A stretch of DNA of 64,000 bases from IMG/VR virus record IMGVR_UViG_3300032046_006283, positions 1 to 64,000 of that record, one strand, 5' to 3'. The notes beneath the pieces were generated by a model. That model saw only the letters and a program-made list of their open reading frames with translations. It did no database searches and had not been told where the DNA came from. The first letter of the stretch is position 1, and every line of letters begins with the position of its first letter. A program made the translations under genes and the position numbers. The stretch is from a virus. Positions 6,067-35,074 of this stretch are shown here, one piece after another.

Positions 6067-6144
6067 TGTAAACTACTCCTTTTTAAAAGTTTAAAGTTGT
6101 TTTTGTTAACACTATAATATACAAATCTTTCTAAATATTTGTAA

Positions 6145-6402: not shown

Positions 6403-6590
6403 TTTATCCTATCCTTTTTCTCCAAATCCTCCAATCTATCAAGTATTGCTGAACCAAAAAACATCACTCCCCCCATGACCATGTGAATTTCATCATTCCT
6501 AATCAATGCTGTCATAAATATCAAAAATCCCAATAACACTACTATCTTCCATATATGTATTCTTTTCATTTTTTCCCTCCAACCATACAA
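6399..6590 (-). CDS. Small two-TM membrane protein
   Basis: Two hydrophobic segments and a charged C-terminus. Confidence 0.45.
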   Translation of the reverse strand: MYGWREKMKRIHIWKIVVLLGFLIFMTALIRNDEIHMVMGGVMFFGSAILDRLEDLEKKDRIK

Positions 6591-6693
6591 ACAAAAACCA
6601 CAACTATTGCATTGTGGTTATTTTTTAAATCTATTTTCTTCACTTTAAACCTCACTTTACTTTACTAATTTTATTACTCAAAACTTTTTTATT

Positions 6694-7587
6694 TTAAAGC
6701 TTTAAAAAATAATACATTTCTAATCTTTGAAAAGTATGTGTCATTTTTATAGCTTTCGGAATTTTAAACTTAGCATTTGACCCATCAAGCGCTTTAAAAA
6801 AAGCATTAGGATAAAATGTTTGTAAATAAGAAATAACATCTTCATACCATGCTATATTATCTATCAAACCATAATTTAAAGCTTCTTCTGGAAACAACTC
6901 TCTCCCATCACAAAAATCTGTCATTTGTGCAAGTAATTGTTCTGCTGTAGGAGTATATCCAAAATATTTAGTTATTTGTGTAACTATAACTTTTCCACGA
7001 GTAGCTAAAATTTGATTTAAAAATTCTTTATAAAATATATCTATCTCATACTGAATTCTATCTTTTTGGCATTGTTCTAAAGGAACATATGGAAAACCAG
7101 CTGCTTTATTTTTTCCACTTGTAAATAAATTATATGTAACACCTGCTTTAGAAGCTGCTTTTGAAAAATCTACATAAACAGCAAATACACCAATTGATCC
7201 TGTCATTGCTGATGGAGCACATATAATTTTCTCTGCAATTGTAGAAATCCAATATGCTCCAGAATATATTCCATTATCTGTATAAACATAAAAAGCTTTT
7301 CTATATTTTTTCTTTAATTGTTCAATTCCATGGGCCACTAATTTAGTTTCTGTAACTGAACCTCCAGGAGAATTTATTACTGCAAGAACAGCACATCCAG
7401 GTTTAGCAAAAGCATCTTCTAATAAAGGAAGCCAATCTAATGACACTACATCATCAATAGATACAACAGTAATTGTACTAAAAGCAATAGTAGTAGTAGT
7501 TTCAGTATTTTCTTTTAATTGAACATTACAACTTACTAAAAATAAAAAAAGTAAACAAACAATACAAAGAACCTTTCTCATATTCAC
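6694..7587 (-). CDS. S49 (SppA-like) peptidase with lipoprotein-type signal
   Basis: INSPGGSV, YSGAYWIS, TGSIGV, SGKNK; lipobox-like FLVSC. Confidence 0.88.
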   Translation of the reverse strand: MNMRKVLCIVCLLFLFLVSCNVQLKENTETTTTIAFSTITVVSIDDVVSLDWLPLLEDAFAKPGCAVLAVINSPGGSVTETKLVAHGIEQLKKKYRKAFYVYTDNGIYSGAYWISTIAEKIICAPSAMTGSIGVFAVYVDFSKAASKAGVTYNLFTSGKNKAAGFPYVPLEQCQKDRIQYEIDIFYKEFLNQILATRGKVIVTQITKYFGYTPTAEQLLAQMTDFCDGRELFPEEALNYGLIDNIAWYEDVISYLQTFYPNAFFKALDGSNAKFKIPKAIKMTHTFQRLEMYYFLKL

Positions 7588-7598
7588 CTTCCTTATCT

Positions 7599-7838
7599 TT
7601 ATAAGTATCTTAAAATATTTAATATACCTAAACCTATTAATATTCCAACAATAATATTAAAAATTGATCTAAAAATCTTATTACTTTTTAACTTAGAATA
7701 AAAAGCACACACTTCTTTATAAAGTTGTAAAGAACTAATTGATGCTGCACACACATATGTCCTAAAAATTATTCCTAACAAAAATCCTATTAAAAGTAGT
7801 ATTATTTGATACATTATAAAAGATATTTCTACAAACAT
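7599..7838 (-). CDS. Small membrane protein
   Basis: Two TM segments; GGAGG RBS. Confidence 0.5.
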   Translation of the reverse strand: MFVEISFIMYQIILLLIGFLLGIIFRTYVCAASISSLQLYKEVCAFYSKLKSNKIFRSIFNIIVGILIGLGILNILRYL

Positions 7839-7850
7839 TTAAAGCCTCCT

Positions 7851-8759
7851 TTACGAATCTTTTTGTTTTTCTTCTTTTTTTTCTTCTTTTTCTACCTCTT
7901 TTTCTTTTTCTGTTTCTTCTTCTTTATCTTCTAATGCTTGGTTGTTTTCTTCCTCTATTTTTTTTCTTTTTTTCTTTCGCATTTTAGAACATTGCTCCGA
8001 AGTAAATTTTGAATCAAAAATAAATTGATAACAAATTTCCTCGAGCCAATCACAAATTCTATCAATAGGAATCAAATAACACATATGAGCAACATCTTCT
8101 TCCTCACCTTTTTTTGTGTCTATTGTTTCAACCAAAGTTGATATCCCTACAAGTTCATAACTCTCTTCTTCTTTATCATTAATAACTAAAAATATACCTC
8201 CGCCAGAATTACCATCAATAATAGGGCTACTACTCATCCAATACTTTTGTTTCTCTATTTCATCATCCATAGAAGTAATTTCACCTTTAGTAGGGACTGG
8301 AGGATGCCCTAAACTACAACCACAAGCATAAACTTTATCATAAATATTTATATCTTTTACATTCTTTGAATGCATTTTTACCACATACTTAATTTGTTCA
8401 TTACTTCTTAACTTTAGTAATGCAACATCCTGGTCTCTATCATATGCAACAATATCAGCATCAATTGCAATACGCCCTACATTTCTACTAAAATTTTGAT
8501 ATTTAAAAAATTCAACAGTTATTGTTGCTCGTTTTTCTTTCTTAATATCTTTTTGAAAAACAGTATTCCATTCTTTTTTAACTTCAATTGCTTTCTCAAT
8601 CACATGATAATTAGTTAAAACATAAGTCTCGTAATCTTCAGAATCCTTCTTTATAGGTTTAGAATAAATTACAGCACCACTTCCGCAATCTTCAGTAGTT
8701 TTAATAAGAGATAAAGTATATAACATTTCTTCATGCTTTTTCTTTGTAAATTTATTCAT
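7851..8759 (-). CDS. Trypsin-like serine protease
   Basis: Catalytic triad motifs VLTNYHVI, DVALLKL, GNSGGG. Confidence 0.9.
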   Translation of the reverse strand: MNKFTKKKHEEMLYTLSLIKTTEDCGSGAVIYSKPIKKDSEDYETYVLTNYHVIEKAIEVKKEWNTVFQKDIKKEKRATITVEFFKYQNFSRNVGRIAIDADIVAYDRDQDVALLKLRSNEQIKYVVKMHSKNVKDINIYDKVYACGCSLGHPPVPTKGEITSMDDEIEKQKYWMSSSPIIDGNSGGGIFLVINDKEEESYELVGISTLVETIDTKKGEEEDVAHMCYLIPIDRICDWLEEICYQFIFDSKFTSEQCSKMRKKKRKKIEEENNQALEDKEEETEKEKEVEKEEKKEEKQKDS

Positions 8760-10170: not shown

Positions 10171-11088
10171 TTAAATTTGGTTTAAAAGACTATTTTTTAC
10201 AAACTCTACATTATTTAAAATATCATTTTCCCAAAAACGTAAAAGAATGTAACCATTTTCTTTTGCTATTTTATTCACTTCTGCGTCTCGCTTCTTATTT
10301 TTTAATTGATATTCACTAAATTTCTTATAAAACTTTGGATTTCCATGGTGATAATCTCCTTCAACTTCTACTAAAATATTGGTGTTCAAAAAATGAAAAT
10401 CTACTAAATGATTACCTAAACGAAATTGTTTTTCATAAGGGATACCTAAAAATGTTAATATATCTTGCATCGCAAGTTCTGGTTTAGTATCTTTGTAAGG
10501 ACCTGGATGAGTTTGAATACGAACTAACGCAGCTTCACTTTTAGATCTTGAAGTAAAGTCATTTCTCTTAAGAATCTCTTTAATGGTCGTATTGTCACAT
10601 TTCCACTTTTTGCTTAAAATAAGAGTACTTGGTTTTTCTTTTGAAAAATACTCTTTACAAATTTGTAATTCTTGTTCTTTTGTAAATTTTTTATGTATAT
10701 CACTTGTTTTTTTACGTATTTCTAAATCTACCCAAGCCTCCTTAATAGTTCTTAAAGTACCTCCATTTCTTATAATAATATTTCTTATAGCAGAATTACT
10801 ACAATCCCATTTCTTAGCTAAAGTATAAATGCTTGGTTTTTCTTTAGAAAAATATTCTTTACAAATTTGTTTTTCTTCTTTTTTGGAAAATATTTTTCTT
10901 GTTTCCCATGAGTTTCTCAAAATACCTTTATTTCTTCGAATAATGTGTTCAATAGTTGTCGAATTGCACTTCCATTTCTTACCTAAAGTAATAATACTTA
11001 GTCTCTCATCGGAAAAATATTCATTACAAATTTGTTGCTCTTCTTCTTTTGTAAATTTATTATTACCATTCATTTTTAAAAACTCCAA
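10171..11088 (-). CDS. Vsr/DUF559-like homing-type endonuclease with three N-terminal HTH repeats
   Basis: Three repeats of F(T/S)KxxExQICxEYFS; C-terminal TKPE...VDF...VEVEGDYHHG...LRFWENDI. Confidence 0.8.
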   Translation of the reverse strand: MEFLKMNGNNKFTKEEEQQICNEYFSDERLSIITLGKKWKCNSTTIEHIIRRNKGILRNSWETRKIFSKKEEKQICKEYFSKEKPSIYTLAKKWDCSNSAIRNIIIRNGGTLRTIKEAWVDLEIRKKTSDIHKKFTKEQELQICKEYFSKEKPSTLILSKKWKCDNTTIKEILKRNDFTSRSKSEAALVRIQTHPGPYKDTKPELAMQDILTFLGIPYEKQFRLGNHLVDFHFLNTNILVEVEGDYHHGNPKFYKKFSEYQLKNKKRDAEVNKIAKENGYILLRFWENDILNNVEFVKNSLLNQI

Positions 11089-11097
11089 AACTTCTTT

Positions 11098-14000
11098 TTA
11101 AATTTGTTTATCTTCTCCTCCAGGTACACCAGGAGTAACACCAAAATCAGGAAAAATATCTTCTTTGATTGGTTTCTTCTTTTTGAGCAAGTTGCTCTCG
11201 CCCCACTGATCTTCACCATAATCTGGAGCCTCAGATTGTGCTGGTTCTGAAGGATAACTTGGCCCTTGATCTTCTCTTAAAAGTAAAGAAGGGCTATTAT
11301 AATTTGTATCAGAAGGTTGACCATAAAACCCTTCTTTTTGTCTAAGATTTAAAGAACTAACTTTTAAATTTCCTAATTCATCAAGAAACGATTCATCAAA
11401 ATTTCTAATTAAATAATCTCCATAAACACCAGATATATGAGCTTCGTGTATTACTTTATCTATCGCAATCATTTTCTCTTGAGGAGTTTTAGCATTTTGT
11501 AAAACTTCTACTAAATATTTCTCTACTTCTATTTGGTTTTTTAAATCCTCGGAAGGAAATCCAGAAACTTCCCATCCATCCCATTCAATCCACCCTTCTA
11601 AAACAATAATAAAACTTGAAATAATTTCATCCATTAAAGAAATATCATAAAGACCTTTTGCTTCTTGTTTATATAATCTTATAAGATCTTGTTTTTTAAC
11701 ATATACTACTACATCCTCATATGCTTTTTTCTTTAAATTTAACGAAGCCATATCAATTCGAGGATCTAAATTATGTTCTACAATTGAATCATTTTTGTCA
11801 TGCCTTGGAGGATTTGTTCTACGTAATTTTTTATCTGTTTTATCAATTACTTGTGAATCTTCTGGAATTTCAGAGTCAGATATAATAGCTTTTTTCTTAT
11901 TTGTTACTTTTTTCTTTTTCGGCCAAGAATGAGGATAATCTAAAGACTTTAATATAGGATTTGAAACTGAACTTTTTCGAAATAAAAGAGAAGCTTCTTT
12001 CATTAAACCTTTAAATGTAGCTATTTTTTTCAAATTTAAACTTTTATAGAATGAGAATTCTTCAACTTCTTTAGGAGTATTAGGATTATTATCAGCATAA
12101 TAACGAACATCTATATCTTTATCTTTAGTCAACTCTGTTAATGTTTCAGAAGGAGTATTTGGATTCTCTGCAACTCTTGCACGAACACTTGAATATTTAT
12201 CTTTAGCTAATTCTGCTAATGTTTCTGAAAGAGTATTTGGATTCTCTGCAACTCTTGCACGAACACTTGAATATTTATCTTTAGCTAATTCTGCTAATGT
12301 TTCTGAAAGAGTATTTGGATTCTCTGCAACTAGAATGTGAACATTTCGGTTTTCATCTTTAGCTAATCCGGCTAAAGTTTCTGGAGAAGTATTTGGATTT
12401 TCTGCTACACATTGACGAATTCTCACCTTTTTATCTTTTGCTAATTCTGCTAAAATTTCTGGAGGAGTAGAAGGAGCTTCAGCAATTTCTAAGCGATCCC
12501 ACGCATCTTTCTCTTTTATAATCTCCAGAGGAGTAAAATATCTTTTAGGAGTTACAACTTCTTCTCCTCTTAATTTTAAATCTTCGGCAACAAGTTTTTG
12601 AAGATCCTTCGACAAATAAGACATTAGTTGTTCTGGAGTAGCTTGTGCTTTTATTTCTAAAGCATCTGAAAACCATTCTTTGATTCTAGGAAAATCATGA
12701 AACATTAAACCAGTGTTATGCTCAACGTCATTTATATGATCAATGATAGTTATAAGTTGGTTTGTATCAGAATTATTTTTAAGCTGAATTAAAGATTCAA
12801 CTATATGACCCCAAGGTTTACCACCATATTGAGAATACCATTTTCCTTTATTATATAATTCTTGAAGCTGTTCTAATGTTAAATCTTTAAAAGCAGGTAA
12901 ATTAAGTTTCTCTTTCCAATATTCCCATCCTAACAAAGTACCAAACCACTTTTTTCGTTTCAGTGATATTAATGCATCTCGATGTTTTGAGGCTTCTGCA
13001 TAAACCATTTTTGTAATTAGAGGAACATAAACTTCTTTAACTTGATTAACAATCATATCCTTATATTCTTTAGCATAAGAATTTGTTTCTAAATATTGAT
13101 CAGAAAGTAAAGAAACACCATAAAAGTCAAAGAAAAGTTGTTTGTCTATTTGAGCTATTTTACGAAGAGATAAAGATGATTTTACACTCATACCACTATA
13201 AAACAAAATAGAGTTTGCAAGATATTTTTGCAACTCTTTTAAATTATCAATTCTATTTACATTATTTATAATCTTTCGTTTATCGTCTTCATCAATATTA
13301 GATGGTTCAACTTTATCTAAAATAATTTGTTTTGCTGTTTCTAAATTTGTTGCGCTCCAAACATCTTGAGCAATATCTTCTAAAATAGATTTAACAGGTC
13401 CTTTATAAGCAGAATTAATTTTAGAAATAAAATCTTTCTTTGATTTTGTTACAAATTCAACGTTTTCAGCATAACTTCCCGCGATTATGTTAACACCCTC
13501 TGATAATCCTAAAGTGTCTATTAAATCTGAAAGATTGTCTGAAAATTCTTCAAATGAACCAGTACCTTCATACCATCTAATATATTGAGGTTTATAAATA
13601 TTGTATGTGCCTCTTGTTACTAAATCAAACTCTCTACCATTTGTAGGTAATCCAATAGTTTCAAACCAATGTATATGAGTCATCATAGGATCTGGATCAA
13701 AATAAATTTTTCCTTTATATATAGCCCAAAGTCCTTCATTTTCTCCAATATAAGAAAATCTTAAACTTCCAACAACTGGTGCCGGAGTTAAAGTAAAATA
13801 ACTTAAATCTACAAGTAACTGATTACGAATTGCCCAAGCAATATCTTCACTACGATCTTTTGAAATATTCAAATCGTCTTCTAAATGCAAAATTAATTCA
13901 AATATAAACACTGATCTATCTAATTCTTCATAAATTTCTCCAGCATCATTTAAACGTTCGTATTGTTTAACAAAACTTTCTACAAACTCTTTTTCTGTAG

Positions 14001-17000
14001 GTGTTAACATAACTTTTTTTATTATACCAAATTCATCTTGTGTTTTTTCTTGAGTTTTCTTTTTTAATGAACCGAAATGTGTTAATTTACCTTGTTCTTT
14101 CAAAAAAGTGATTAAATTATCCCAAGCTTCATAACTTTCTTTTTCTTGTTCTTTCGATATTCCTTCTTCAGCTGCTTTATCAAGATAATCTTCATATTCT
14201 ATTTTTAAATGCATAAGTATTGAAAAATCAATATGCATCATATTTATAACATTGTCAATAGCAATAATTTGTGAATTAATATCAAAAGCACTATTTAACT
14301 CTTCTAAACGTTGTTTCATTTCTTCTATAACTTGTAATTCACCTGCTTCTTCTCTAACACTTCCCGGATACCTTTTATACCATTTTAAATAATCTTCAAA
14401 AAAGAACATTAAATCTCGAACAACTTTATTTGTTAAACTATTTAACTTTTTTTCTATTTGTTCAAACTTCTGTATTTCTTTATCTGTTAAAGTTCCTTCA
14501 TTATATTTTTGTTCCAATTCTCGATATTGAATTTCAAGGTCATAAACTGCTTGAAGTTCATTAGGGGTAACAACTGCTTTCTTTCTCATACTTAAAGATG
14601 TTTTAAATTCTTTCATTTTTTGACTCATTGCAAATTCTATAATAGAAGCTTCATCTTCTGTTAATTGACCAAAATCTAAAGCTGTATTCATTTCTTTTTT
14701 GATTTGATTTATTTCCTCTTCATTTTTTGCTTTATCTATATTTTTAAAAAAAATACGTTCTTTCTTTTTGGAAGATACTTTTGTACCTGTAAAAAGTTTA
14801 TAAGCTTTTTCAACCCATTCTGATATATTTGTATCTCCCCAATTATTTATCAATTCATAAATAGATGCTTGTATTATATAAGCCGGAATTAATGTGTGTA
14901 AAGCCTTAGCCGCTTCAGTTCTATGAATACCATCAATTACTTTGTATCTGCCGTTGTCAGGCACCGTGATAATAGGTTTAATTGGTGTTCCTTCCTTGTA
15001 TAAAGCTACTAATTTTTGTACTTTTTTAGGATCAGCACCTAATTCATTCCATTCACTCGGATCTATTAAATTTGGATCTAACTCGGAAAGTTCTATATTT
15101 ATGTCTTTTATTCCTTCTTCTTCAAGGAATTTATCAATACCTTCTGGAGAATAATCTTCTAATAAATCTTCTTCTCTATTTGCTATTACTTTTCGAAAAG
15201 TTAAATTACTAACTTTTAAATTACCTAATTCTTCAAAAAAGGAGCTATAAAAATCTTCAACTAAATATTCTCCATATAATCCTGTTTCATGTGCTGTATT
15301 TATAGTGTGGTCTATTGCTATCATTTTATCTTGTGGTGTTTTAGCTAATTTCAACATATCAATTAAATATTTTTGATCCTTTACTAATTTCGGAGTGCTT
15401 TCATATTCAGGATAATATTGAACGTTTGATGCAATCAAAATTGTTAAAATTCTTATAAATTCTGAAATAATTTCATCCATTAATTCTTCATCATATATAC
15501 CTTTAACTTCTTGCTTATATAATTTTTTTAAATCCTGAGTTGTTATACTTGATGTTGGATATTCCTCAGGCACTTCTATTTTATAAAAATCTTTAAATTC
15601 TCTTTTTAATTTATCAGCAAAAACCATTTCTTTTATATCTGTTTCAAAAGTTAAATAACTTTCTTTTTTCAAAACTTCTTTTTTACATTCATCACAAATT
15701 CCATGACTTATATATGGTAAATATTTAGAATACTCTTCATTAGTTAAATGCTTAATAATATGTCTTGTACTTCTATCAAATATTCCTTTACACCAAGCGC
15801 ATATACCATATTTTGAATAATCTAAATTTTCTATGTCAATTTCTTTAGTTTCTTCTTGCGGAACTTTTTCCATAGGAAGGTCTTTCTGCATATCAGATCT
15901 CATATTTAAACTACCAATTTTTAAATTACCTAATTCTTCAAAAAAAGTTTCATCAGAATCTGTTAAAGTCTCTCCATATGTTCCAGAAGCGTGAGCAGTA
16001 TGTATTACTTGATCAATAGCAATCATTTTTTCTTGAAGTGTTTTTGCTTCTTCTAGAATCCTTATTAATTTTTTTGTTTGTTTTTCTTGTTCTGGATCGT
16101 ACCACTTATTAAATTCCTCTAACAAATAAATAAACTTTGAAACAATTTCATTTAACAATTTTTCATCATATATACCTTTAGCTTCTTGTGTATATAATCT
16201 TATTAATTCTTGTTTTGTAACTAAAGAAGATGCAATTCTATTAAGAAAAGTTTCTAAATCTTCTTCTTCTTGAGCTTTTCTTTTCATATTTAAACTACCA
16301 AAAGGTTTTGTAACGGGTCTTTGGAAACTTTTCCAAACTTCTTTTCCAAGTTCTTTCCAAGTAGGAAATTTTTTCTTTTCTTTTGGTTCTGGTTCACCAA
16401 ACTCTTCAACTGGAATAGGAATCTCTTCTTCTGGTTCTATATCTAATTCAAATGTTAAAGGTTTTGTTTCTTTCTCTTCTAAAGGTTTTTCAATAGGTTT
16501 TTTAACTTCTACAGGTTCTTCTTTTTCAATTATAGGTTCTTTCTTTAGCATCTCAACTTTAGGAACTTCTTTAACTTCTTCATGTTTTGTCATTCTTATT
16601 TCATCTGGTAAAAAAGGAGAAGTAAAACCTACTGTAAATACAGTAGCAATATTTCTAGAAACATTTGTCAACTCTGTAATTTTTACATCATAAGAACCAT
16701 CTGCATTTTTCTTCTTTATAATCCCTTTTCCTTTTAAAGTACCTCCTGGACCTTTTCTTGCAGCTCCAAAAAATCTGGTAGTATCAAAAACAACCTCATC
16801 ACCTACATTGAATTCTTTTCTTTCTGCAGCAACTTTATTTTGAGCATTTTTCTTAAAAATTTGAGAAATAGGTGAAAAAAATTCTTCGCTTTGTACTGGA
16901 AATTCATTAAATCGAAGTTTAAGTTGTTGTGGAATTATAAATTGTTCTTCAATATTTTTTCGTATAGTTTCTTTTAAACCTTTTTCATGTTTAAATTCAA

Positions 17001-18393
17001 AAGGTTTTTCAAAAGCTTTATATTTATCTTTTTGTTCTTCTTTATCCTTTTCTTTTTTTAGTTTTAATTTATCCATAAATGTAGGTTCTGAAAATACTAT
17101 ATCCATTTGTACAAACTCTTGAATTAAAGGTTCGTTAGCTTCTTTCTTTCTCATATTCAAACTCGCTGTCATTTGAGAAGCTGGATTATCTTCCCATAAC
17201 CAAGGACTTCTTTCTATCCTTTCAAGAGAAGGAAATACTATATTATAACCTTGATCCGCTTCTCTATCTTCCCACCTATCTTCTCCTTGTTGATAAGTAT
17301 GCCAAGATTGATGTTCTCCTTGAATTTCATCTAAAGAATTGTCTGGAATAGGTTCAGAAACGGTGGATGCTTGTCTCCTAATTACTTTAAAACTTTTTAA
17401 TCCTCTAAATACTTTAGCAATGATACCTCTTTGAATAACTTCTTTAGCTAATTCTATTTCTTTTTCAGTTACATCTGTCTTCTTACCTCTTGCTATATCC
17501 CATATTTCATCTGGACTGTATTTGTTCAAGAGGTCGGAGTAAGGAACATCTATTATATTTGGAATTTTTTCTTTTAAAGTTTCTTCTTCTTTCGTAATCA
17601 AAAGATCTTTTAATATTTCTTTTTCTTTTTTAGAAGGTTCTCTTAATCCTAAAGATTCAGCCATAGCTTCTTCAATTGCTTTTAATACTAAATCTTTTGA
17701 AAATGCTTCTTGTAAACCATATTCTTCCATAACATAAATTTCCCAATTTTTAATAAAAGATTGTGGAAATTTATTTGAAAAATCTGCAATTAATCCATTT
17801 ATAAAATGCATACTTACATTTTTCTTTTTCGCTATATGATTTACAAAATAATAAACATCTATTCGAGAAACAATTTCAGAACCATATTTATTAAGTTCCT
17901 TCAAAATTTCATCCACATATAATGACCAATCTTGAGCTTCTTTTTTCATATTTAAACTTCCACATATTCCAGGACCATAAGAAGGAGATCCTGGAGTTGA
18001 ATCATATTCCATTGGATTAGAAACATTTGGATCTATGTTAAATATATTACCTTGCTCATCTGGATAATTATGAAAAGGAAATCTTAGTTTTGGTTTTTTT
18101 GGACCTTTAGGATATTCATCAGACTTTCCTGGTTCATAAAAATTTTCTTGGAGTGTTTCAGCATCTGCTTTTTTAAAATTTAAAGAAGCGACTTTTGAAA
18201 TATAAGGTAAAATTGCATTCCTTAATTCATTTGGTGATTCAAACCAAGTACCTTGGAGTTTATCCAATATATATTTTTCATAATAAGGATAATTTGGATG
18301 TCCCGGAGGAACACCATATTCACCTAAAAGTTGAGAAACCAAATTAGGATCTGCAACAATCCAATTTGGTTCCCTTCCAAATCGCAATTTCAT
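11098..18393 (-). CDS. Giant 2431-aa mosaic protein (ParB-like domain, LRV repeats, triplicated helical domain, KOW/SH3-like module)
   Basis: Uninterrupted ORF; ParB-like KVIDGIHRTEAA; recurring SLNMxKKA linkers. Confidence 0.8.
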   Translation of the reverse strand: MKLRFGREPNWIVADPNLVSQLLGEYGVPPGHPNYPYYEKYILDKLQGTWFESPNELRNAILPYISKVASLNFKKADAETLQENFYEPGKSDEYPKGPKKPKLRFPFHNYPDEQGNIFNIDPNVSNPMEYDSTPGSPSYGPGICGSLNMKKEAQDWSLYVDEILKELNKYGSEIVSRIDVYYFVNHIAKKKNVSMHFINGLIADFSNKFPQSFIKNWEIYVMEEYGLQEAFSKDLVLKAIEEAMAESLGLREPSKKEKEILKDLLITKEEETLKEKIPNIIDVPYSDLLNKYSPDEIWDIARGKKTDVTEKEIELAKEVIQRGIIAKVFRGLKSFKVIRRQASTVSEPIPDNSLDEIQGEHQSWHTYQQGEDRWEDREADQGYNIVFPSLERIERSPWLWEDNPASQMTASLNMRKKEANEPLIQEFVQMDIVFSEPTFMDKLKLKKEKDKEEQKDKYKAFEKPFEFKHEKGLKETIRKNIEEQFIIPQQLKLRFNEFPVQSEEFFSPISQIFKKNAQNKVAAERKEFNVGDEVVFDTTRFFGAARKGPGGTLKGKGIIKKKNADGSYDVKITELTNVSRNIATVFTVGFTSPFLPDEIRMTKHEEVKEVPKVEMLKKEPIIEKEEPVEVKKPIEKPLEEKETKPLTFELDIEPEEEIPIPVEEFGEPEPKEKKKFPTWKELGKEVWKSFQRPVTKPFGSLNMKRKAQEEEDLETFLNRIASSLVTKQELIRLYTQEAKGIYDEKLLNEIVSKFIYLLEEFNKWYDPEQEKQTKKLIRILEEAKTLQEKMIAIDQVIHTAHASGTYGETLTDSDETFFEELGNLKIGSLNMRSDMQKDLPMEKVPQEETKEIDIENLDYSKYGICAWCKGIFDRSTRHIIKHLTNEEYSKYLPYISHGICDECKKEVLKKESYLTFETDIKEMVFADKLKREFKDFYKIEVPEEYPTSSITTQDLKKLYKQEVKGIYDEELMDEIISEFIRILTILIASNVQYYPEYESTPKLVKDQKYLIDMLKLAKTPQDKMIAIDHTINTAHETGLYGEYLVEDFYSSFFEELGNLKVSNLTFRKVIANREEDLLEDYSPEGIDKFLEEEGIKDINIELSELDPNLIDPSEWNELGADPKKVQKLVALYKEGTPIKPIITVPDNGRYKVIDGIHRTEAAKALHTLIPAYIIQASIYELINNWGDTNISEWVEKAYKLFTGTKVSSKKKERIFFKNIDKAKNEEEINQIKKEMNTALDFGQLTEDEASIIEFAMSQKMKEFKTSLSMRKKAVVTPNELQAVYDLEIQYRELEQKYNEGTLTDKEIQKFEQIEKKLNSLTNKVVRDLMFFFEDYLKWYKRYPGSVREEAGELQVIEEMKQRLEELNSAFDINSQIIAIDNVINMMHIDFSILMHLKIEYEDYLDKAAEEGISKEQEKESYEAWDNLITFLKEQGKLTHFGSLKKKTQEKTQDEFGIIKKVMLTPTEKEFVESFVKQYERLNDAGEIYEELDRSVFIFELILHLEDDLNISKDRSEDIAWAIRNQLLVDLSYFTLTPAPVVGSLRFSYIGENEGLWAIYKGKIYFDPDPMMTHIHWFETIGLPTNGREFDLVTRGTYNIYKPQYIRWYEGTGSFEEFSDNLSDLIDTLGLSEGVNIIAGSYAENVEFVTKSKKDFISKINSAYKGPVKSILEDIAQDVWSATNLETAKQIILDKVEPSNIDEDDKRKIINNVNRIDNLKELQKYLANSILFYSGMSVKSSLSLRKIAQIDKQLFFDFYGVSLLSDQYLETNSYAKEYKDMIVNQVKEVYVPLITKMVYAEASKHRDALISLKRKKWFGTLLGWEYWKEKLNLPAFKDLTLEQLQELYNKGKWYSQYGGKPWGHIVESLIQLKNNSDTNQLITIIDHINDVEHNTGLMFHDFPRIKEWFSDALEIKAQATPEQLMSYLSKDLQKLVAEDLKLRGEEVVTPKRYFTPLEIIKEKDAWDRLEIAEAPSTPPEILAELAKDKKVRIRQCVAENPNTSPETLAGLAKDENRNVHILVAENPNTLSETLAELAKDKYSSVRARVAENPNTLSETLAELAKDKYSSVRARVAENPNTPSETLTELTKDKDIDVRYYADNNPNTPKEVEEFSFYKSLNLKKIATFKGLMKEASLLFRKSSVSNPILKSLDYPHSWPKKKKVTNKKKAIISDSEIPEDSQVIDKTDKKLRRTNPPRHDKNDSIVEHNLDPRIDMASLNLKKKAYEDVVVYVKKQDLIRLYKQEAKGLYDISLMDEIISSFIIVLEGWIEWDGWEVSGFPSEDLKNQIEVEKYLVEVLQNAKTPQEKMIAIDKVIHEAHISGVYGDYLIRNFDESFLDELGNLKVSSLNLRQKEGFYGQPSDTNYNSPSLLLREDQGPSYPSEPAQSEAPDYGEDQWGESNLLKKKKPIKEDIFPDFGVTPGVPGGEDKQI
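12075..12500 (-). repeat. Leucine-rich-variant (LRV/HEAT-like) 24-aa repeats, including an exact 72-bp tandem duplication
   Basis: VAENPNT(L/P/S)xETLAELAKD about six times; KYSSVRARVAENPNT repeated identically at DNA level. Confidence 0.85.
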
Positions 18394-19512: not shown

Positions 19513-21417
19513 TTACCATTTTCTCCTAAATGATTCTTTTCCGCCTATTCTATCTTTTGCACTGCTTTTATTACTTCTAAAGCCTTTAAATAAAGAATCA
19601 CCTTTTTGAGGATTTATAACTCTACCTAAAGATATAGGTGAACCTAAATTCTTATGTAACTCTCTAATAGTTTTACTTGACATTTCTTTTCTTATGGCTA
19701 ATCTATATACTAAATTTGCGGTGCAAACCGCAAAATCATCTGAAGTAATTGGACCTGAAGTAGGAGCTGCATAGTATACAGTCCCGCCGGCGATAATTTT
19801 TTGTAGATATTTAAGTTCTAATTTTAATTTATTAACCCAATTCTCAGTTGGATCAGAATCCATTTCATAACACAATACTTGCCCTTGATTTAATTTTTCT
19901 AAAAAAGTTCCAAATATTTCACCTTTATATTGATTCGTGAAAGTTGTTTCAAATGCGGGTAATTTCATCTTTCTTAATGTATGAATACTATTAACTGAAT
20001 TCCATTGATCATAACAAATCTCCATTACTTGTTTTCCAGCTGCGTTTAAATTCGAAATCAAATTTAATAAATAATTCATTACAATATCAGGATCAATTCT
20101 TTCCACAACAATATGGCCATCACCTAAATTCTTTGTAGTAGGTTCAAAACCTTTCAATCCATCCACCCAATACTTTTCAGAAGGGCGATCCTCTCTATGT
20201 CCCCAAGCAAGAGCATAAGTATCTGACTTGCTCGCGGGATCAATTGTAATAATATACAATTGTCCAGGTCTTCCTCGTAATAATATAGGAGCGCTCGGTA
20301 CAACCATTTCGTCTACTTTTTCGGGATTCAAGAACGAAGAAGCAGGTTCTCCAAAGTGGCCTCCATATTCCATCGAAGCAGATATTGGATCTTTAATAAA
20401 ATCAACATTAAAATCTTCTCTTTTAAATCTTGGATTTGCTTGCCAAGTTGATAATTGAAAAAGTAAATAATTTGGATTCGGTATAGCTTTTTCACCCTCG
20501 TTTTGTTCTTTACCACCAGCTAAACAATATAAATAGTAAAACTCTCCTGCTTTTTCTGCAGGACTCGAAATTGCAACAATTAATCCATCTTTTCCAAAAT
20601 CTTTTACAGAAGGTGTCAAAGCTGTCCACATTGCATGATCAGTTTGAGGAGATTCAATAACTTCTAAAGTTGAACGTTTATATTTAGATCGTCCAAAATG
20701 ACCGAATTCATCAAAAATAAGGATCAGGATTGCTTTTCCTCTTTTAGTTGCTGCAGATGTAGTAACCGATTCAATACAAACAGAACCACGCAGAATATTC
20801 TTTTTCATTACTCCTTTTTTACGTGACTCATTGTATTTACGAATTTGAGAATTCAAAAACAAATCATATGGAGAAAACAATCGCAATTCAGTTTCATTGT
20901 CTTTATCAAAATCAATATATTTTTGAAAAAATTCAAGTTTTTTGACATTATCTTTTATTAATTGGAAAGTTTCCTTAGCCTGCTCACCGTCCGAAGCACA
21001 ATTCATTATGTATATAGGATGTCTTTCTCTTATTTGATAATGCCTTTGAGGATTGCCCTTACATATTAGTTTGTAAGCTTCATAAGTTGCAATCCAAGAA
21101 ACTAAAGATGATTTACTTCCCCTTCTTCCAATAACAAGAATTAAAACTTCTATAATTTGATTTATATCTTTGCTATCAAAACGAAAATCAATTTCCCACT
21201 CAGTTTTTAAAGCATCAAGGAGATTTTTTTCTTCTTCAGTAAAAGGATACTTTTGCCACAAACCATATAATACTTTCAAAACAAGACTTTGAAATGGAAA
21301 TGGGTTTTCACTTAACCATTTATGAGAAGTGGCGAAGATTAAAGCATCAACAGGTTCAACAGGAGAAGTTAATTCTATTTTTTCATTATATTTTTCATTT
21401 ATAAAATCTTTAAACAT
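19513..21417 (-). CDS. terL: Terminase large subunit
   Basis: Walker A VIGRRGSKS, Walker B ILIFDEFGHF, AISSP, nuclease ITIDPASKSD, CYDQWNS, SDDFA. Confidence 0.85.
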   Translation of the reverse strand: MFKDFINEKYNEKIELTSPVEPVDALIFATSHKWLSENPFPFQSLVLKVLYGLWQKYPFTEEEKNLLDALKTEWEIDFRFDSKDINQIIEVLILVIGRRGSKSSLVSWIATYEAYKLICKGNPQRHYQIRERHPIYIMNCASDGEQAKETFQLIKDNVKKLEFFQKYIDFDKDNETELRLFSPYDLFLNSQIRKYNESRKKGVMKKNILRGSVCIESVTTSAATKRGKAILILIFDEFGHFGRSKYKRSTLEVIESPQTDHAMWTALTPSVKDFGKDGLIVAISSPAEKAGEFYYLYCLAGGKEQNEGEKAIPNPNYLLFQLSTWQANPRFKREDFNVDFIKDPISASMEYGGHFGEPASSFLNPEKVDEMVVPSAPILLRGRPGQLYIITIDPASKSDTYALAWGHREDRPSEKYWVDGLKGFEPTTKNLGDGHIVVERIDPDIVMNYLLNLISNLNAAGKQVMEICYDQWNSVNSIHTLRKMKLPAFETTFTNQYKGEIFGTFLEKLNQGQVLCYEMDSDPTENWVNKLKLELKYLQKIIAGGTVYYAAPTSGPITSDDFAVCTANLVYRLAIRKEMSSKTIRELHKNLGSPISLGRVINPQKGDSLFKGFRSNKSSAKDRIGGKESFRRKW

Positions 21418-22198
21418 TGATTTCACTTTTTAAACAATTATATTCTCTTAATCTTGTAATAAGTGTGTCTGTAGAACATCCAAAAAAAGTAGCTGTCTTT
21501 TTCAAAGTATTATTTTGAATAATATAATAGTTAAATAATTCTTCTTTATTTATTTTATATTTAAAATGAGGACTGTTCTCTCCTATATTTGCCTTCCTTA
21601 TTTTTTCCTTTGCTTTATCAGAATGATGTTTACCATAAAAAGGATTGTTTTTGCCTTTTCGAGAGGCACTCATTTTTATCCTAGTGCTTAACGTCAATTT
21701 TTTACCTATATTTGCAATATATATTTTTCTTCTAGTTTCTTCAGAACGTTTTTTCCCTTTATTAGACAATTTTATTTTTTGTATAGTTTCTAAAGAACGG
21801 GGCTTACCAAAATTTGGATTCAATTTCCCTTTTTTAGACTTACTCATTTTTCTTTTACTTTTCTCAGAAAATTTCAAACCTGTGCACCCTTCTCCTCCTA
21901 ATGTTAAATTATAACCTTTACCATTACTTATAAAAGAATCATACTGATGAATAAATTCTTTTTCTTTTATTTTTAATTCCTCAAAATTATCAGAAAAATA
22001 AATTTCTTTATATTCAAAATTTTTTAAACCATATTCTGCAATTTTTCTATCAACCAATTGACTTTCTTTAACTTTACCCTCTTTACATTTCTGTGCCCAC
22101 CATATATGATCTTTCCATCGCCGTTGATAATTTGTAGAATCAATACCAATGTAGTATTTATTATTTATTTTATTTTTTATATAATATGTTACACCCAT
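21410..22198 (-). CDS. GIY-YIG homing endonuclease with NUMOD3 repeats
   Basis: VTYYIKNKINNKYYIG, GYNLTLGGEG, NPFYGKHHS. Confidence 0.9.
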   Translation of the reverse strand: MGVTYYIKNKINNKYYIGIDSTNYQRRWKDHIWWAQKCKEGKVKESQLVDRKIAEYGLKNFEYKEIYFSDNFEELKIKEKEFIHQYDSFISNGKGYNLTLGGEGCTGLKFSEKSKRKMSKSKKGKLNPNFGKPRSLETIQKIKLSNKGKKRSEETRRKIYIANIGKKLTLSTRIKMSASRKGKNNPFYGKHHSDKAKEKIRKANIGENSPHFKYKINKEELFNYYIIQNNTLKKTATFFGCSTDTLITRLREYNCLKSEINV

Positions 22199-22199
22199 A

Positions 22200-22967
22200 T
22201 TATTCTTCATCACTTTCATTGTCTATAATTTTTGCATCAGCAATTACCATATCTTTAGGATTTAACAATGGGGTTATTTTTTCATCTAATTTTTCAATAA
22301 ATCTTTCTTTAACTCTATCTCGAACTACAGGATCATCTATTTCTTCGATTAACACATCTACAAAATCTTCAATAAACTTTTTTATTCCTTCTTTAATGTT
22401 TTGTATCATAACAATGTTCACATTAACTACTCCAGGACCTTGTTCTATTTTCATGTGAGTCAACAAATCCTTAGTAAGGCCTTTCATAATTTCATCAATT
22501 GCAGATGTTACTTCTTGTATTTCTTTTCTATAAAAAAGACTTTTTTCACTTTCTGGTTTACTTTCCAAACTCTTTTTAAGTGCTAAAAGTTCCCAAAGAT
22601 TTTTAATACGTGCATCGTATAATAAGTTCACGGTTTTTATTTTATTCAGAGTTTCATTATATTTTTGTTGATACAATTCAACAACTGCTGGACTAAAATC
22701 TGTCAATGTAAGTTCCCGTTTCTTTTCTTCAATTTGAGCTGCCTTTTTTGGATCGCAATGATGTTTATGACTATTAATATTAGTGCCAGTCAAGCCTCCA
22801 GGAATCTGAGATCCCCACTTATCAATAATTTCATGATAAGTCATTGTACCTTCTAAAAGAACAATAGTAATTTCATTTAAAAAAGAAGACTGACAAATCT
22901 TACATCTTTTAGAAACTCTAAGGAGTCCTTTAACTTTAGGTTTTTCTTGATTTTTTGATTCCGCCAT
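22200..22967 (-). CDS. Putative terminase small subunit
   Basis: RCKICQ...HKHH Zn/HTH N-terminus, helical body, position upstream of terL. Confidence 0.5.
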   Translation of the reverse strand: MAESKNQEKPKVKGLLRVSKRCKICQSSFLNEITIVLLEGTMTYHEIIDKWGSQIPGGLTGTNINSHKHHCDPKKAAQIEEKKRELTLTDFSPAVVELYQQKYNETLNKIKTVNLLYDARIKNLWELLALKKSLESKPESEKSLFYRKEIQEVTSAIDEIMKGLTKDLLTHMKIEQGPGVVNVNIVMIQNIKEGIKKFIEDFVDVLIEEIDDPVVRDRVKERFIEKLDEKITPLLNPKDMVIADAKIIDNESDEE

Positions 22968-32027: not shown

Positions 32028-34256
32028 TTAAAAAACCTCAGGAGACTCAAGATCTGATTCTTCTTCTTCCACTTCTTCTGTTTCCTCTTCTTCTGGTTCT
32101 ATAGGTTGTTCTGAAGGAGAAACTTCAGCACCTTTTGGTTCTTCTTCTTCTTTTTTTTCTTCAGTTACTCCTTCTTGATCTCCAAAATTTATACTAAAAT
32201 CTTTAGTTTCTGGATTTAAAGTAATTGTTATTTCTTCAAGTTCTTCCTCTTCAGGTTCTTCTTCTCCATCTAATAATTTTTTAGGCTCTCCAGGTAATTT
32301 TGGATGACCTGTTTCTTTTACGGTCCAATTCATAGGCTGAAGTTTACTTGAACTTCCTGCGCCTCCCCCACCTCTTAACGCTTCCATTCCATCAGCTGTT
32401 TTCTTCAAATTCTCTTTTTTCGCTCTACCATATAATTGTACTACTCGTTTTGCTATTCCAAAAAGATGTTGAAATTCTTTTTCATTTACTAAATATCCAT
32501 TTTGATCTAACCATTCTCTTAAAGCTTGTTCAACATGTTTTATCTCATTACCAAGATACCCAAGAGTTTCAAGAAATTTTTCACTCTCTACTAATTCTCT
32601 TTCTACTCTAATTAAAGATATTTCAACTGCTGTTTTTATAGTTGCTTCTTTTATAATACTACTAATTTTTTCATTAATTGCTTCTAATGGAATTTCTTTC
32701 TCAATTCCTTCACCTTCTTCTTCCATCTTATATAAACGAGTATAATAATCAGGAAGTTCATTAAGATGGTCTAAAGCAATCTTTGCATAATTTGTAGCAT
32801 TGCCTTCACCAACAACTCCAGAGTGTTCAATTTCAACATTCATTCCTTTTGTAAATTCATCTAAATTCACGAGCTTCCAATCAACACCTAAAGAATCTCC
32901 TATACGTTTTGCTTCATCAGCTGTAAATATGTTTATAAGATTATCGTGTTCTGCTGTTTTCTTAGAAGCTTCTTTCAATAAAACAATACTATATTCTTCT
33001 TCATTATACCATAGTTGCTCGTCTTCGTTCCCAGATCCTGTAATTTCAATAGTTTCGTGCATATCACCATCATTACCAAGGTATTCATCAACTTGAGCAA
33101 TTGTTACACTTGGAGCAATAGTAGTATTCTCTTCTTTATCCATTATTTGAACTTTATCACCAACCTTAAATGAAATCTTCTTTATCGAAGCTTCTTTTTC
33201 AACTTCTTCTCCAAGTTCCTTTTCTATCTCTTCTTCTGTTTCCTCTTCAGGTTTTTCTAAAGATTCTTCAACAGGACTTGATGGAGTATTTAATTCTTTT
33301 AAATATTTTAAAGCTTTAGGATTGTCAAACCACATAATAACATTTTGAGATTTTTTATTTTTTGCAAATTTTAATAAATTTTTTCCTTTTAACCAAGTTT
33401 TAATTGCTTCACTATAATTACCAACACCTTCATTTTTATCTTTTTCAACTAAAAAATCATATAATTCTTTAGATGTTTCAGGTGTAAGATTAATACCAAA
33501 TGCATCTAAAACTTGATCGTGTAAATCTTCAACATCACTATCAACAAATTGTGCTCTCTTTTTTAAAGAAGCTTTTTCATTTACTCTTTTAGTATAAACA
33601 ACTTTTTCTAATTGATTTCTATTGTATGAAGCTTTGCACTTACACTGAATTTTTCCAACAGTCTTCAAACCTTGCAAAGAAATTTCTTTATTACAAACAG
33701 AACAAGAAGCAACTGCTCTTATGGTATTATCTTCAAACCATGAAGAAGGCATATCTTTAAAAATAACTTGAGAACGATCTGGAACAGCAGATCTAACTTC
33801 TCCTATCTTCCCATTATATTTTTCATAAAGATGACCAAAAGGAACATTTATTTGAACTACTGTTCCTGGAGTATAGGAAATTTTTTTGGAAGAAGTCTTT
33901 TCTATTTTTGTTCTTTCTTCAATAATTTCCTCTTTTTTCTGTATTGAAGCTTTTACTTGACGTATAATTTTATCATCTTCCCCTGTATAAACAACAACCC
34001 AGCGCTCATCTTTACCATTAGCATTTTTTATTGTTTCAATAACCCATATACTTCCAGCATCAGCATCTGTTTTCTTTTTATATATATCATAGCCTACTTT
34101 CTCAAAATCTTCTTCATTTCCTTTAAAAAGAATAGCACCTCGTTTTCGTAAAACATTAACTCTTTCATTATATTTTACTAAATTAAGAGCCTTATTAACA
34201 AAATTTGGAATTTCTTCCATTTTTCTTACCTGATTCAAATATGATTTATTTACCAT
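32028..34256 (-). CDS. ~742-aa mosaic protein with DUF5661-like and KOW-like modules
   Basis: GMNVEIEH...KIALDHLNELPDYYTRL; FKVGDKVQI; KEASxKK linkers; acidic tail. Confidence 0.75.
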   Translation of the reverse strand: MVNKSYLNQVRKMEEIPNFVNKALNLVKYNERVNVLRKRGAILFKGNEEDFEKVGYDIYKKKTDADAGSIWVIETIKNANGKDERWVVVYTGEDDKIIRQVKASIQKKEEIIEERTKIEKTSSKKISYTPGTVVQINVPFGHLYEKYNGKIGEVRSAVPDRSQVIFKDMPSSWFEDNTIRAVASCSVCNKEISLQGLKTVGKIQCKCKASYNRNQLEKVVYTKRVNEKASLKKRAQFVDSDVEDLHDQVLDAFGINLTPETSKELYDFLVEKDKNEGVGNYSEAIKTWLKGKNLLKFAKNKKSQNVIMWFDNPKALKYLKELNTPSSPVEESLEKPEEETEEEIEKELGEEVEKEASIKKISFKVGDKVQIMDKEENTTIAPSVTIAQVDEYLGNDGDMHETIEITGSGNEDEQLWYNEEEYSIVLLKEASKKTAEHDNLINIFTADEAKRIGDSLGVDWKLVNLDEFTKGMNVEIEHSGVVGEGNATNYAKIALDHLNELPDYYTRLYKMEEEGEGIEKEIPLEAINEKISSIIKEATIKTAVEISLIRVERELVESEKFLETLGYLGNEIKHVEQALREWLDQNGYLVNEKEFQHLFGIAKRVVQLYGRAKKENLKKTADGMEALRGGGGAGSSSKLQPMNWTVKETGHPKLPGEPKKLLDGEEEPEEEELEEITITLNPETKDFSINFGDQEGVTEEKKEEEEPKGAEVSPSEQPIEPEEEETEEVEEEESDLESPEVF

Positions 34257-35074
34257 AGTCAAATGCCTCCATTAATTTATTTTTAACTTCATCTATATTT
34301 CTTAAAATATCATCTTCCCAAAATCTTAAAACTACAAAACCTTTTTCCTTTGCTAACTGTTCATTTTTAACATCTCTTTCTTTTTGCCCTAATTGAATTT
34401 TATTAAAACTACTAAACTTTTTTGGATTTCCATGCCAATAGTCTCCGTCAACTTCTACAAGAAAAGGAGAATTTAGAATATGGAAATCAGCAACGTGATT
34501 ACCAACACGATATTGTTTCTCATAAGGAATATGTAGAAATATTAAAATTTCTTCCATTTTAAGTTCAGGTTTAGTATCTTTAAAAGGACCTTTATAATCT
34601 TTAACATATTGTAGCATATATTTCTGCTGTTCTTTTCTTTTTTGTATTCCTTTTTCACTTTTATAAAACTCTTTAAGAGAATTTTTTAACTTTTTTCTTG
34701 TTTTATCTAAAACAAATATGTCCTTCAAGAGAATTACTGGTTAATTGTTTTGCTTTTTCAGACCTAAATTTGCCTGTATTAATTCTTCGTAATTTTTCCA
34801 TTATCCATTTTGGACGTGGTATATCTTTTTTTGAATCACTTATTCTTTTAACACCTTTGTTTGTTTCTTTTGTCAATCCTTTATTCCATGCTTTTTGACC
34901 TATATGAGAATCCCTTTTATTTCTTAAACAATACCCATTTCTTTTAACAACATTACCAATAGTTGTTTGAGTACAATCCATTATTTTTGCTAATTTAATA
35001 GTACTTAATTTATCTTCAACATATTGTTTACAAATTTGCGTTTCTTGTTCTTTTGTAAACATTCTATTTGACAC
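34246..35074 (-). pseudogene. HTH-NUMOD-DUF559/Vsr endonuclease split by a 1-nt frameshift
   Basis: Removing one T near 34714 joins ORFs 34703-35074 and 34246-34728 as ...LEGHIVLDKTRKKL..., giving the architecture of the 10171 and 53590 paralogs. Confidence 0.7.

Follow-up and report, generated by a model that had tools for sequence, protein, structure and literature searches.

Giant proteins that join many unrelated domains in one chain, encoded by phages or conjugative elements, have been described as polyvalent proteins (Iyer, Burroughs, Anand, de Souza, Aravind 2017, PMC5512222). In the passages of that paper considered here, they are proposed to be delivered with the DNA and to release their domains by proteolysis, and the release is ascribed to peptidase domains that the chain itself contains (zincin MPTase, assemblin-like). 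Here we describe the open reading frame (ORF) P0001 (11098..18393 on the minus strand, ATG start, 2431 amino acids, aa), located in a 64,000-nucleotide (nt) stretch, the window, which covers positions 1 to 64,000 of the IMG/VR virus record IMGVR_UViG_3300032046_006283 (73,124 bases, reported as 33% complete and classed as a provirus). Its product has the architecture of a modular cassette polyprotein, with a short basic peptide at the joints. There is good support both for this architecture and for the view that the junction peptide is recognised as a signal and does more than space the modules.

P0001 resembles the polyvalent proteins, as the same passages describe them, in being a giant phage protein with many unrelated domains, in about 15 units (2-15 in the category), encoded beside packaging and virion genes. 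The phage context of its family consists of the terminase large subunit, TerL, plus a portal and a capsid protein in a relative, the 168-kb, 90% complete genome G001. The category has as its hallmark conflict domains zincin MPTase, DdrB-like ParB, ART, NTase, helicases and methylases. Domain types that may be common to both are a ParB-like module (in P0001, weak), a Pol-beta nucleotidyltransferase-like module (NTP_transf_2 in the G001 homologue P0003, E 0.0016, below cut-off) and a zincin HExxH motif (in the distant homologues P0027, P0031 and P0043). Unlike polyvalent proteins, the P0001 clade has no embedded peptidase that we could find, and one fixed peptide is present at every joint, in several genes and at chain ends, with modules exchanged there. 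The word "linker" is absent from the main text of PMC5512222, and a shared junction peptide is not described in the passages considered.

A further comparison is with prohead proteases. In the part of the SPN3US study used here (PMC10052503), one motif of the prohead protease gp245 is common to many head proteins and the protease cleaves its own C-terminal part; many substrates lose an N-terminal propeptide, about 20 to 250 residues long, and long regions are cut at several copies of the motif. Two leaders in G001, of 21 aa and 52 aa, fit such propeptide sites, and the junction motif is likewise common to several head-module proteins. T4 gp21, with the capsid-targeting sequences of IPI-III and Alt, and phiKZ gp175 are comparable systems, and motifs of the T4/phiKZ type end in Glu (A-x-E / L-x-E; L/I-x-E or S/A/G-x-E). 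The P0001 consensus, in contrast, is basic and has no Glu, and one chain carries about 15 swappable units, where prohead substrates, as far as that part of the study covers them, are one protein plus propeptide each. The phage itself is not T4- or phiKZ-like: the capsid protein of its relative belongs to phrog_2522 and the protease domain to phrog_18299. By analogy, the P0001 system may work like prohead-protease processing, while not being a member of that group.

Polyproteins of RNA viruses and pp220/pp62 of African swine fever virus are cleaved at consensus sites by a viral protease, encoded separately or embedded (chymotrypsin-fold or cysteine). Like them, P0001 has one ORF, many putative products and a consensus peptide at the joints (74 sites in 7 proteins). 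Their gene order is fixed and they contain essential proteins of replication or of the core, whereas here order and content vary among close relatives and the modules look accessory. In the literature searched, with supplements outside its scope, we found no published description of a tailed-phage polyprotein or of this junction peptide.

A sequence-only reading of the window had listed 13 copies of the peptide at apparent domain boundaries of P0001. All 13 are present, each within about 16 nt of its approximate coordinate; the codon of the Ser or Asn preceding the motif Leu lies at the higher coordinate of each junction in Table 1. Eight copies match the strict form S-L-N-[MFL]-[KR], and all eight SLN words of P0001 continue as [MFL][KR]. 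In six frames of the window, SLN[MFLI][KR] has 8 matches, every one inside P0001. Residue shuffles of P0001 (n=5000) averaged 0.03 matches to the strict and 0.49 to the loose form, none of them reaching 8 or 13. Among the remaining 91 non-overlapping minus-strand genes (21,094 aa) of the 73-kb contig, the strict form is absent and the loose form has 3 matches. The motif is therefore enriched against both shuffles and the rest of the proteome. The copies at aa 828, 1063 and 2347 are not independent, as they end three paralogous helical modules (last residues of the repeat, ELGNLK[VI]). At the DNA level, the word AGTTTAAATATG has three exact and two one-mismatch copies inside P0001 and, at <=1 mismatch, 7 matches across the whole window vs 2.05 expected.

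For the family as a whole, the 74 sites scored were distributed over P0001 (11), P0003 (21, with one overlapping pair), P0004 (14), P0006 (10), P0005 (9) and two further proteins of G001, PP2 (6) and PP3 (3). The 70 sites with full flanks give the consensus [SAG]-[SK]-L-[SN]-M-R-K-[KT]-A-Q. Their logo has S (32) and K (15) at position -1, S (28) and N (27) at +1, Met (46) at +2, K (64) at +4, and A (40) and S (9) at +6; positions 0, +2 and +3 are partly set by the search expression.

In terms of structure, the motifs lie outside the confidently folded cores of the two models considered. Copy 1 of the helical module (16-row alignment) has a mean predicted local distance difference test score (pLDDT) of 78.8, with 85-95 in the core and 55-75 and 49-64 at the flanking motifs. 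In the model of aa 1-720 (12-row alignment, mean pLDDT 54), the N-terminal domain E reaches 94-95, and junction 1 is exactly where confidence drops to 42. Coil with a pLDDT below 50 is predicted for modules F and H and for the tail of G, and junctions 2, 3 and 4 lie in these regions or at their edge.

A word-indexed search returned five relatives of P0001. P0002 equals P0001 minus one 26-aa LRV repeat, P0003 has 3263 aa, P0004 (2830 aa, partial) is labelled as a protein from a Candidatus Cloacimonetes metagenome-assembled genome, and P0006 (1479 aa) and P0005 (1873 aa) are neighbouring genes on one contig. That P0001 is an artefact of assembly or gene calling was rejected, since the ORF was met again in independent contigs, in P0002 as a near-identical protein. 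An exhaustive HMMER search with aa 1-1200 against 1.84 billion representatives found 44 proteins at E <= 0.001, so the clade is rare. With P0001 as query, tblastn against 50,697 phage records gave two weak partial matches (4-5% of the query); an IMG/VR pattern scan with P0001 alone gave no match, and alignment scans of metagenome contigs with module F and the C-terminal tail found nothing beyond two contigs already known. Genomic context is drawn from 3 genomes.

When the seven proteins were cut at the motif and the pieces clustered, 11 module families were found in common. Module E comes first in all four proteins with an intact N-terminus (P0001, P0003, P0004, P0006), and the acidic tail comes last in all three with an intact C-terminus (P0001, P0003, P0005). 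Between them, order and content vary. The architecture is E F D(+H) G A A ParB .. C K A tail in P0001, E A F C D B A G A I .. in P0003, and E F D H. A A G B. in P0006, followed by I C B J B. A K A tail in its neighbour P0005. The helical module (A) stands between E and F in P0003 and P0004, not in P0001 and P0006. Module C directly follows F in P0003, but is the ninth of twelve segments in P0001. Compared with P0003 and P0005, P0001 has gained module B at its decayed joint GSLRFS. The small domain that ends module D is directly followed by the motif in relatives (P0003, PP2, P0011-P0017), and this copy is decayed in P0001 (..RGIIAKVFRGLKSFK..). Some modules also live alone: none of the four homologous polyproteins has the ParB-like module, whose other matches are all stand-alone proteins of 120-160 aa (P0021-P0030), and the helical module is found by itself in P0015, P0020, P0024 and P0046. 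BLAST segment ends fall at most 5 aa from a motif in 28% of 756 cases vs 6% of random positions, the segments not being mutually independent. Modules are thus gained, lost and reordered at the motif.

The peptide is not limited to the P0001 family. G001 was scanned in full with a coding-strand DNA pattern and a protein expression, and beyond P0003 the motif was found at four places (Table 1), in PP2, PP3 and two shorter proteins. The DNA pattern TTRARYATGARRAAR matches the coding strand only (forward/reverse 0/4, 0/13 and 10/0 in three genomes; reversed control, 0-1 matches). A leader of 2-5 residues and then the motif opens PP3 (N-terminus MLYSLSFRKTSQ), P0005 (MTLFMRKKAG, preceded by a GAGGGGGAGGGG ribosome site) and all five PP2-type proteins (G001 PP2, P0011, P0012, P0013, P0017). 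The latter start M-K-(K)-(N)-K-L-x-M-R-K and end ..L-S-M-R-K-(EGSRE or KGK), so that the motif plus 2-5 residues also closes each of the five. These terminal copies hold L-x-M-R-K, and Ala is not always kept. Retention of the motif at chain ends points to a recognition site, since a mere hinge would not be kept there. A related junction, (K/E)-E-A-S-[LI]-K-K-[KT]-A, is found in two sister polyproteins of the window, and within the 73-kb contig the pattern AS[LI].{0,2}[KR][KRT] is confined to the three giant ORFs (4, 4 and 3 matches). These three genes add up to 4587 codons, about 21% of the 64 kb.

We lean towards reading the junction peptide as a site-specific cleavage code for virion cargo polyproteins, which we consider moderately probable. 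P0001 would be a cargo polyprotein of a large uncultured tailed phage, resembling a polyvalent protein. Its fixed parts are the folded domain E and the acidic C-terminal tail, and the changeable set between them comprises about 14 self-contained units, some of them folded mini-domains and others conserved disordered peptides. At each joint, the ten-residue [SAG]-[SK]-L-[SN]-[MLF]-[RK]-K-x-[AS]-(Q) would be read by a site-specific endopeptidase that cuts the chain into units. The cut would most likely fall within M-R-K-K, because the terminal copies keep L-x-M-R-K but not always Ala. Cutting the 280-kDa chain at its junctions would give pieces of 73, 76, 265, 289, 128, 235, 203, 176, 101, 197, 378, 99, 130 and 81 aa (8-42 kDa). 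The chain would enter the capsid whole, perhaps through domain E, and the pieces would be delivered into the host. The same code marks several head, portal-adjacent and tail-module proteins of the near-complete relative, and the sister code the two other giant genes of the window. The sequence-only reading had proposed a polyprotein with a processing or head-loading tag that releases packaged effectors. Of this, the modular cassette polyprotein and the recognised signal hold up, as three of the four checks proposed with that reading (on enrichment, structure and homologues) were run and each turned out favourable. Proteolytic release, capsid loading, the enzyme, host delivery and an effector role are inferred.

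If the cleavage code is true, one phage gene supplies an entire variable collection of small proteins, and a short motif suffices to predict the mature products of "hypothetical" giant phage proteins that amount to hundreds of kilodaltons. Tailed phages would join RNA viruses and a few large DNA viruses of eukaryotes in using polyprotein processing. The code would also explain the rapid reshuffling of injected arsenals and yield a protease and site pair of defined specificity.

As for the processing enzyme, no HExxH was found in P0001, P0003-P0006, PP2 or PP3, and an embedded zincin peptidase was dropped on that ground. With no embedded peptidase, an enzyme acting in trans would be needed, and it could be the cytoplasmic, HtrA-like protease at 7851-8759, encoded two to three genes downstream of P0001, the relative's head maturation protease or a host enzyme. 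The trypsin-fold, HtrA-like candidate has no signal peptide, its H52/D111/S185 are invariant and its relative position is the same in all 3 genomes, and it carries a conserved C-x-K-M-R-K-K close to its own C-terminus. All three phages with the junction code have the version without a signal peptide. HtrA enzymes prefer aliphatic P1 residues, which would suit a cut between Met and Arg in L-S-M-R. Complex prediction with protease aa 1-256 (3-row alignment) and P0001 aa 690-730 gave a score of 0.04 (mark 0.32), speaking neither for nor against binding. In G001, the head-maturation-protease domain opens a 1444-aa protein beside the capsid gene; this protein has no L-S-M-R-K motif and, by inspection, several K-[KT]-A words. 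The S49 peptidase of the window (6694-7587) was dropped as processor: it is the only match there to phrog_53, a PHROG named "head maturation protease", but its N-terminus MNMRKVLCIVCLLFLFLVSC reads as a lipoprotein signal and its neighbours are small membrane proteins. This SppA-like peptidase (..FLVSC) lies amid four small, mostly hydrophobic ORFs (5791-7838, minus strand), and the region may be an envelope or lysis-related cassette, not a head protease.

Several observations weigh against a cleavage code for virion cargo. The junctions of P0001 at aa ~335, 1442 and 1543 are decayed, so not every joint would be cut. Virion association of P0001 is suggested by gene position only, and P0001 lies near the terminase, but in G001 the terminase is about 38 kb from the portal. 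The protease-scaffold protein, major capsid protein and portal of G001 have no L-S-M-R-K motif. The aa 1-720 model is poor overall, and low pLDDT with a 12-row alignment may reflect missing information and not disorder. On the side of the enzyme, trypsin-fold relatives elsewhere mostly have signal-peptide-like N-termini, apparent in at least 11 of 15 non-self loci (L019-L024, L027, L029-L032; 33-37% identity; in other, higher-GC phages), and the flanks fetched around such relatives in other phages contain no giant gene with the motif. One low-GC phage also pairs a trypsin-fold enzyme with a metallophosphoesterase, so the location of the protease here may reflect that pairing and not the polyprotein.

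The same chain could also work whole, as an uncut beads-on-a-string protein in which the peptide, present ahead of each module, is a short linear docking motif (for example for a capsid-interior, portal or DNA partner) or a common flexible hinge. We regard this as unlikely. The strongly basic character of the motif (R/K at +3, K at +4 and often at +5) would suit binding to DNA or an acidic surface, and protein termini keep the motif although they have no joint to be cut. Full-length transfer is reported for virion proteins of the N4 type and for many polyvalent proteins (passages of PMC5512222 considered). A hinge, however, would need no fixed ten-residue sequence with an invariant Leu and Met/Leu/Phe, the 4-5-residue N-terminal leaders and 2-5-residue C-terminal stubs resemble trimmed propeptides, and modules are also found as independent small proteins. 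Internal starts at the motif Met, or slippage on the A-rich R-K-K codons, would give nested products without proteolysis. Met is the commonest residue at +2 (46 of 70 sites), M-R-K-K-A resembles a typical N-terminus and the codons are A-rich, but a Shine-Dalgarno-like word precedes none of the 5 motif ATGs of P0001 vs 65 of 92 real gene starts. Moreover, 7 of the 13 copies have a Leu or Phe codon in place of Met, the lack of stops between modules allows only nested C-terminal products, and AAG enrichment at +4 interrupts A-runs. We dropped both initiation and slippage, given the missing ribosome-binding word and the AAG bias, as very improbable.

That the peptide is a passenger of a recombination seam, the 24-33 nt encoding it serving as microhomology for cassette exchange, had been put forward as an alternative in the sequence-only reading, and we consider it rather improbable as the primary cause. 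Part of it stands: homologue breakpoints coincide with the motif, and two P0001 copies have 33 nt in common at 91% identity (family D8). The motif Leu codon is TTA/TTG in 47 of 48 copies (background 69%), and Ser(+1) is AGT in 20 of 21 (background 28%, p 3e-10). A 265-nt duplication (91% identity) also flanks the LRV block of PP2 in G001. On the other hand, synonymous codons of Ser(-1), Arg(+3) and Ala(+6) are used as freely as in the rest of the genes (p 0.07-0.3), and the AGT bias at +1 is expected from an Asn (AAT)/Ser toggle under protein-level selection. Selection for intact domains leaves surviving breakpoints between domains under any mechanism, and across proteins diverged by 47-60% the motif is held as amino acids, not as nucleotides. 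Lys(+4) is AAG in 31% vs 15% in the background (p 0.005). We read the codon pattern as protein-level selection with side effects, namely an Asn/Ser toggle locked to AAT/AGT, a tendency to avoid A-runs and perhaps a shared origin of the linker DNA; these leave the seam idea room as a secondary effect.

Returning to the cleavage code, it could be part of a wider "polyprotein regulon", which we put forward tentatively and hold to be doubtful as a whole. It would unite the three giant genes of the window with the head, portal-adjacent and tail proteins of relatives under a basic code in two dialects, L-[SN]-M-R-K-K-x-A and E-A-S-[LI]-K-K-[KT]-A, read by a dedicated phage endopeptidase. Domain E would be one loading ticket, at the N-terminus, for the whole chain, and cutting would then free a cocktail of at least 14 small effectors and conserved acidic peptides for injection. 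With the junction as exchange seam, cassettes would swap between genes and genomes, an exon-shuffling-like evolution of injected arsenals.

The domain identities proposed from the sequence fared unequally. LRV repeats were confirmed (PF01816, E 2.5e-17) and are the sole domain that Pfam recognises in P0001. The CxxC..CxxC segment is visible at aa ~865-905, and the three-copy helical domain is borne out by ~70% nt identity among the copies, with two more diverged copies read from the sequence. The ParB-like assignment has weak matches (Table 1), and phmmer of P0001 against PDB sequences returned ParB/SbnI only (E 0.04-0.6). For the KOW/SH3-like module, two predicted beta-hairpin strands (aa 553-576, pLDDT 64-76) are what points to it. 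The helical module had no Foldseek match in the PDB at E <= 0.001, its best VIA-align wide rows (Z 6.6) were generic helical bundles, and the ESM Atlas gave no usable match. For the aa 1-720 model, Foldseek against BFVD gave meaningless TM-scores of about 0.07 and VIA-align wide a best Z of 6.3; its phage core/ejectosome rows (9vvp_I Z 5.4, 8vb2_I Z 4.4) are at noise level and were not used.

Table 1. Features of P0001, its surroundings and its motif-bearing relatives. Nucleotide positions refer to the window unless G001 is named; aa positions refer to P0001.
Feature	aa	Nucleotides	Strand	Remarks
Module E, folded N-terminal domain	1-69	18187..18393	-	pLDDT 94-95 over aa 11-60, 42 past aa 70
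Junction 1, SLNFKKAD	70-77	18163..18186	-	at pLDDT drop; module A inserted here in P0003, P0004
Module F, Pro/Gly/Tyr-rich, predicted disordered	78-145	17959..18162	-	75-79% identity in relatives
Junction 2, SLNMKKEA	146-153	17935..17958	-	low-confidence stretch 124-149
Module D, helical	154-330	17404..17934	-	ends in small domain aa 281-330, pLDDT 96
Module H, acidic, Trp-rich, predicted disordered	331-410	17164..17403	-	own motif-bounded module in relatives
Junction 3, SLNMRKKE	411-418	17140..17163	-	within low-confidence stretch 331-421
Module G	419-699	16297..17139	-	conserved IIPQQLKLRF; small beta domain (KOW/SH3-like, strands 553-576); long Glu/Lys/Pro-rich tail
Junction 4, SLNMKRKA	700-707	16273..16296	-	motif match and AlphaFold2 models
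Helical module copy 1	708-827	15913..16272	-	signature ..KMIAID.VIH.AH..G; core pLDDT 85-95; module cluster n=15
Junction 5, SLNMRSDM	828-835	15889..15912	-	pLDDT 49-64
CxxC..CxxC zinc-ribbon-like segment and helical module copy 2	836-1062	15208..15888	-	
Junction 6, NLTFRKVI	1063-1070	15184..15207	-	
ParB/Srx-like module, DGIHR motif	1071-1265	14599..15183	-	phrog_1033 E 1.3e-6; TIGR00180 E 5.7e-5, below cut-off
Junction 7, SLSMRKKA	1266-1273	14575..14598	-	
Diverged helical module (..QIIAIDNVINMMH..)	1274-1441	14071..14574	-	matches P0003 1257-1443, P0006 721-889
Junction 8, SLKKKTQE, degenerate, without hydrophobic residue	1442-1449	14047..14070	-	
Module I, first half	1450-1542	13768..14046	-	57% identity to P0005 90-178
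Junction 9, SLRFSYIG, degenerate	1543-1550	13744..13767	-	module B inserted here vs P0003, P0005
Module B (GLWAIY.G..Y...H..WF..GLP), then module I, second half	1551-1739	13177..13743	-	module-B cluster: 8 copies in homologues
Junction 10, SLSLRKIA	1740-1747	13153..13176	-	
Module C	1748-2117	12043..13152	-	helical part (phrog_20946) and LRV repeats aa 1969-2093
Junction 11, SLNLKKIA	2118-2125	12019..12042	-	
Module K', basic, low complexity, conserved ..RRTNPPRHDKNDSIVEHNLDP..	2126-2216	11746..12018	-	
Junction 12, SLNLKKKA	2217-2224	11722..11745	-	
Helical module copy 3	2225-2346	11356..11721	-	
Junction 13, SLNLRQKE	2347-2354	11332..11355	-	
Conserved C-terminal tail, acidic, Pro-rich, ends ..GG..KQI	2355-2431	11101..11331	-	67-69% identity
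Candidate trypsin-fold (HtrA/DegP-like) serine protease, 302 aa		7851..8759	-	PF13365 E 2.5e-12; TIGR02037 E 5e-11, below cut-off
Terminase large subunit, 637 aa		19513..21426	-	phrog_2 E 1.4e-19; three ORFs upstream of P0001
Sister polyprotein, 1412 aa		27746..31984	-	related junction
Sister polyprotein, 744 aa, DUF5661		32028..34262	-	same related junction
PP2, 1185 aa, directly downstream of portal		G001, L003 7323-10880	-	six motif sites
PP3, 518 aa, between tape-measure-like gene and tail protein		G001		three sites; LRV and helical modules, both also in the giant gene
297-aa head-module protein		G001		motif 52 aa into the chain
117-aa ORF just upstream of terminase		G001		motif 21 aa into the chain

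The window has a G+C content of 29%, and its minus strand holds almost every long ORF. Terminase and P0001 are separated by minus-strand ORFs of 79, 215 and 63 aa, in transcription order. On the 3' side of P0001 follow an HNH endonuclease, an SbcD-like metallophosphoesterase, the trypsin-fold protease, a small membrane protein and the S49 peptidase. A complete PrkA / DUF444 (YeaH) / SpoVR trio (23135-27695, minus strand; Pfam E 1e-77 to 1e-99) lies between the sister polyproteins and the terminase; it was not among the ORFs read upstream of the terminase in G001.

In PP2 of G001, a supposed sigma-factor identity of one motif-bounded module was set aside and counts as a lead, as its matches are sub-threshold only (SigK/SigY/ECF sigma-70-family models, E about 2e-6, far below cut-offs). 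The 268-aa ORF immediately 3' of PP2 is putatively sigma-like.

Mobile elements are dense, with HNH and GIY-YIG-type homing endonucleases in the window (10171-11088 and 21410-22219, minus strand). The terminase genes of relatives contain inteins according to Pfam, and mobile-element loci are L001 4709-7945, L002 2807-5809, L003 10997-14197 and L025 9845-11887. Further apparent inteins are found in a relative's portal and in the catalytic-Ser region of one homologous trypsin-fold protease, and the terminase of the window has none. Elsewhere in the window, a family-A DNA polymerase carries an N-terminal domain of the uracil-DNA-glycosylase superfamily (54348-56873, minus strand; PF03167 E 3e-32, PF00476 E 3e-101). 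Beyond the window, at the far end of the contig (72085-72588), there is an ORF made almost entirely of the short tandem repeat G-I-R-L(F).

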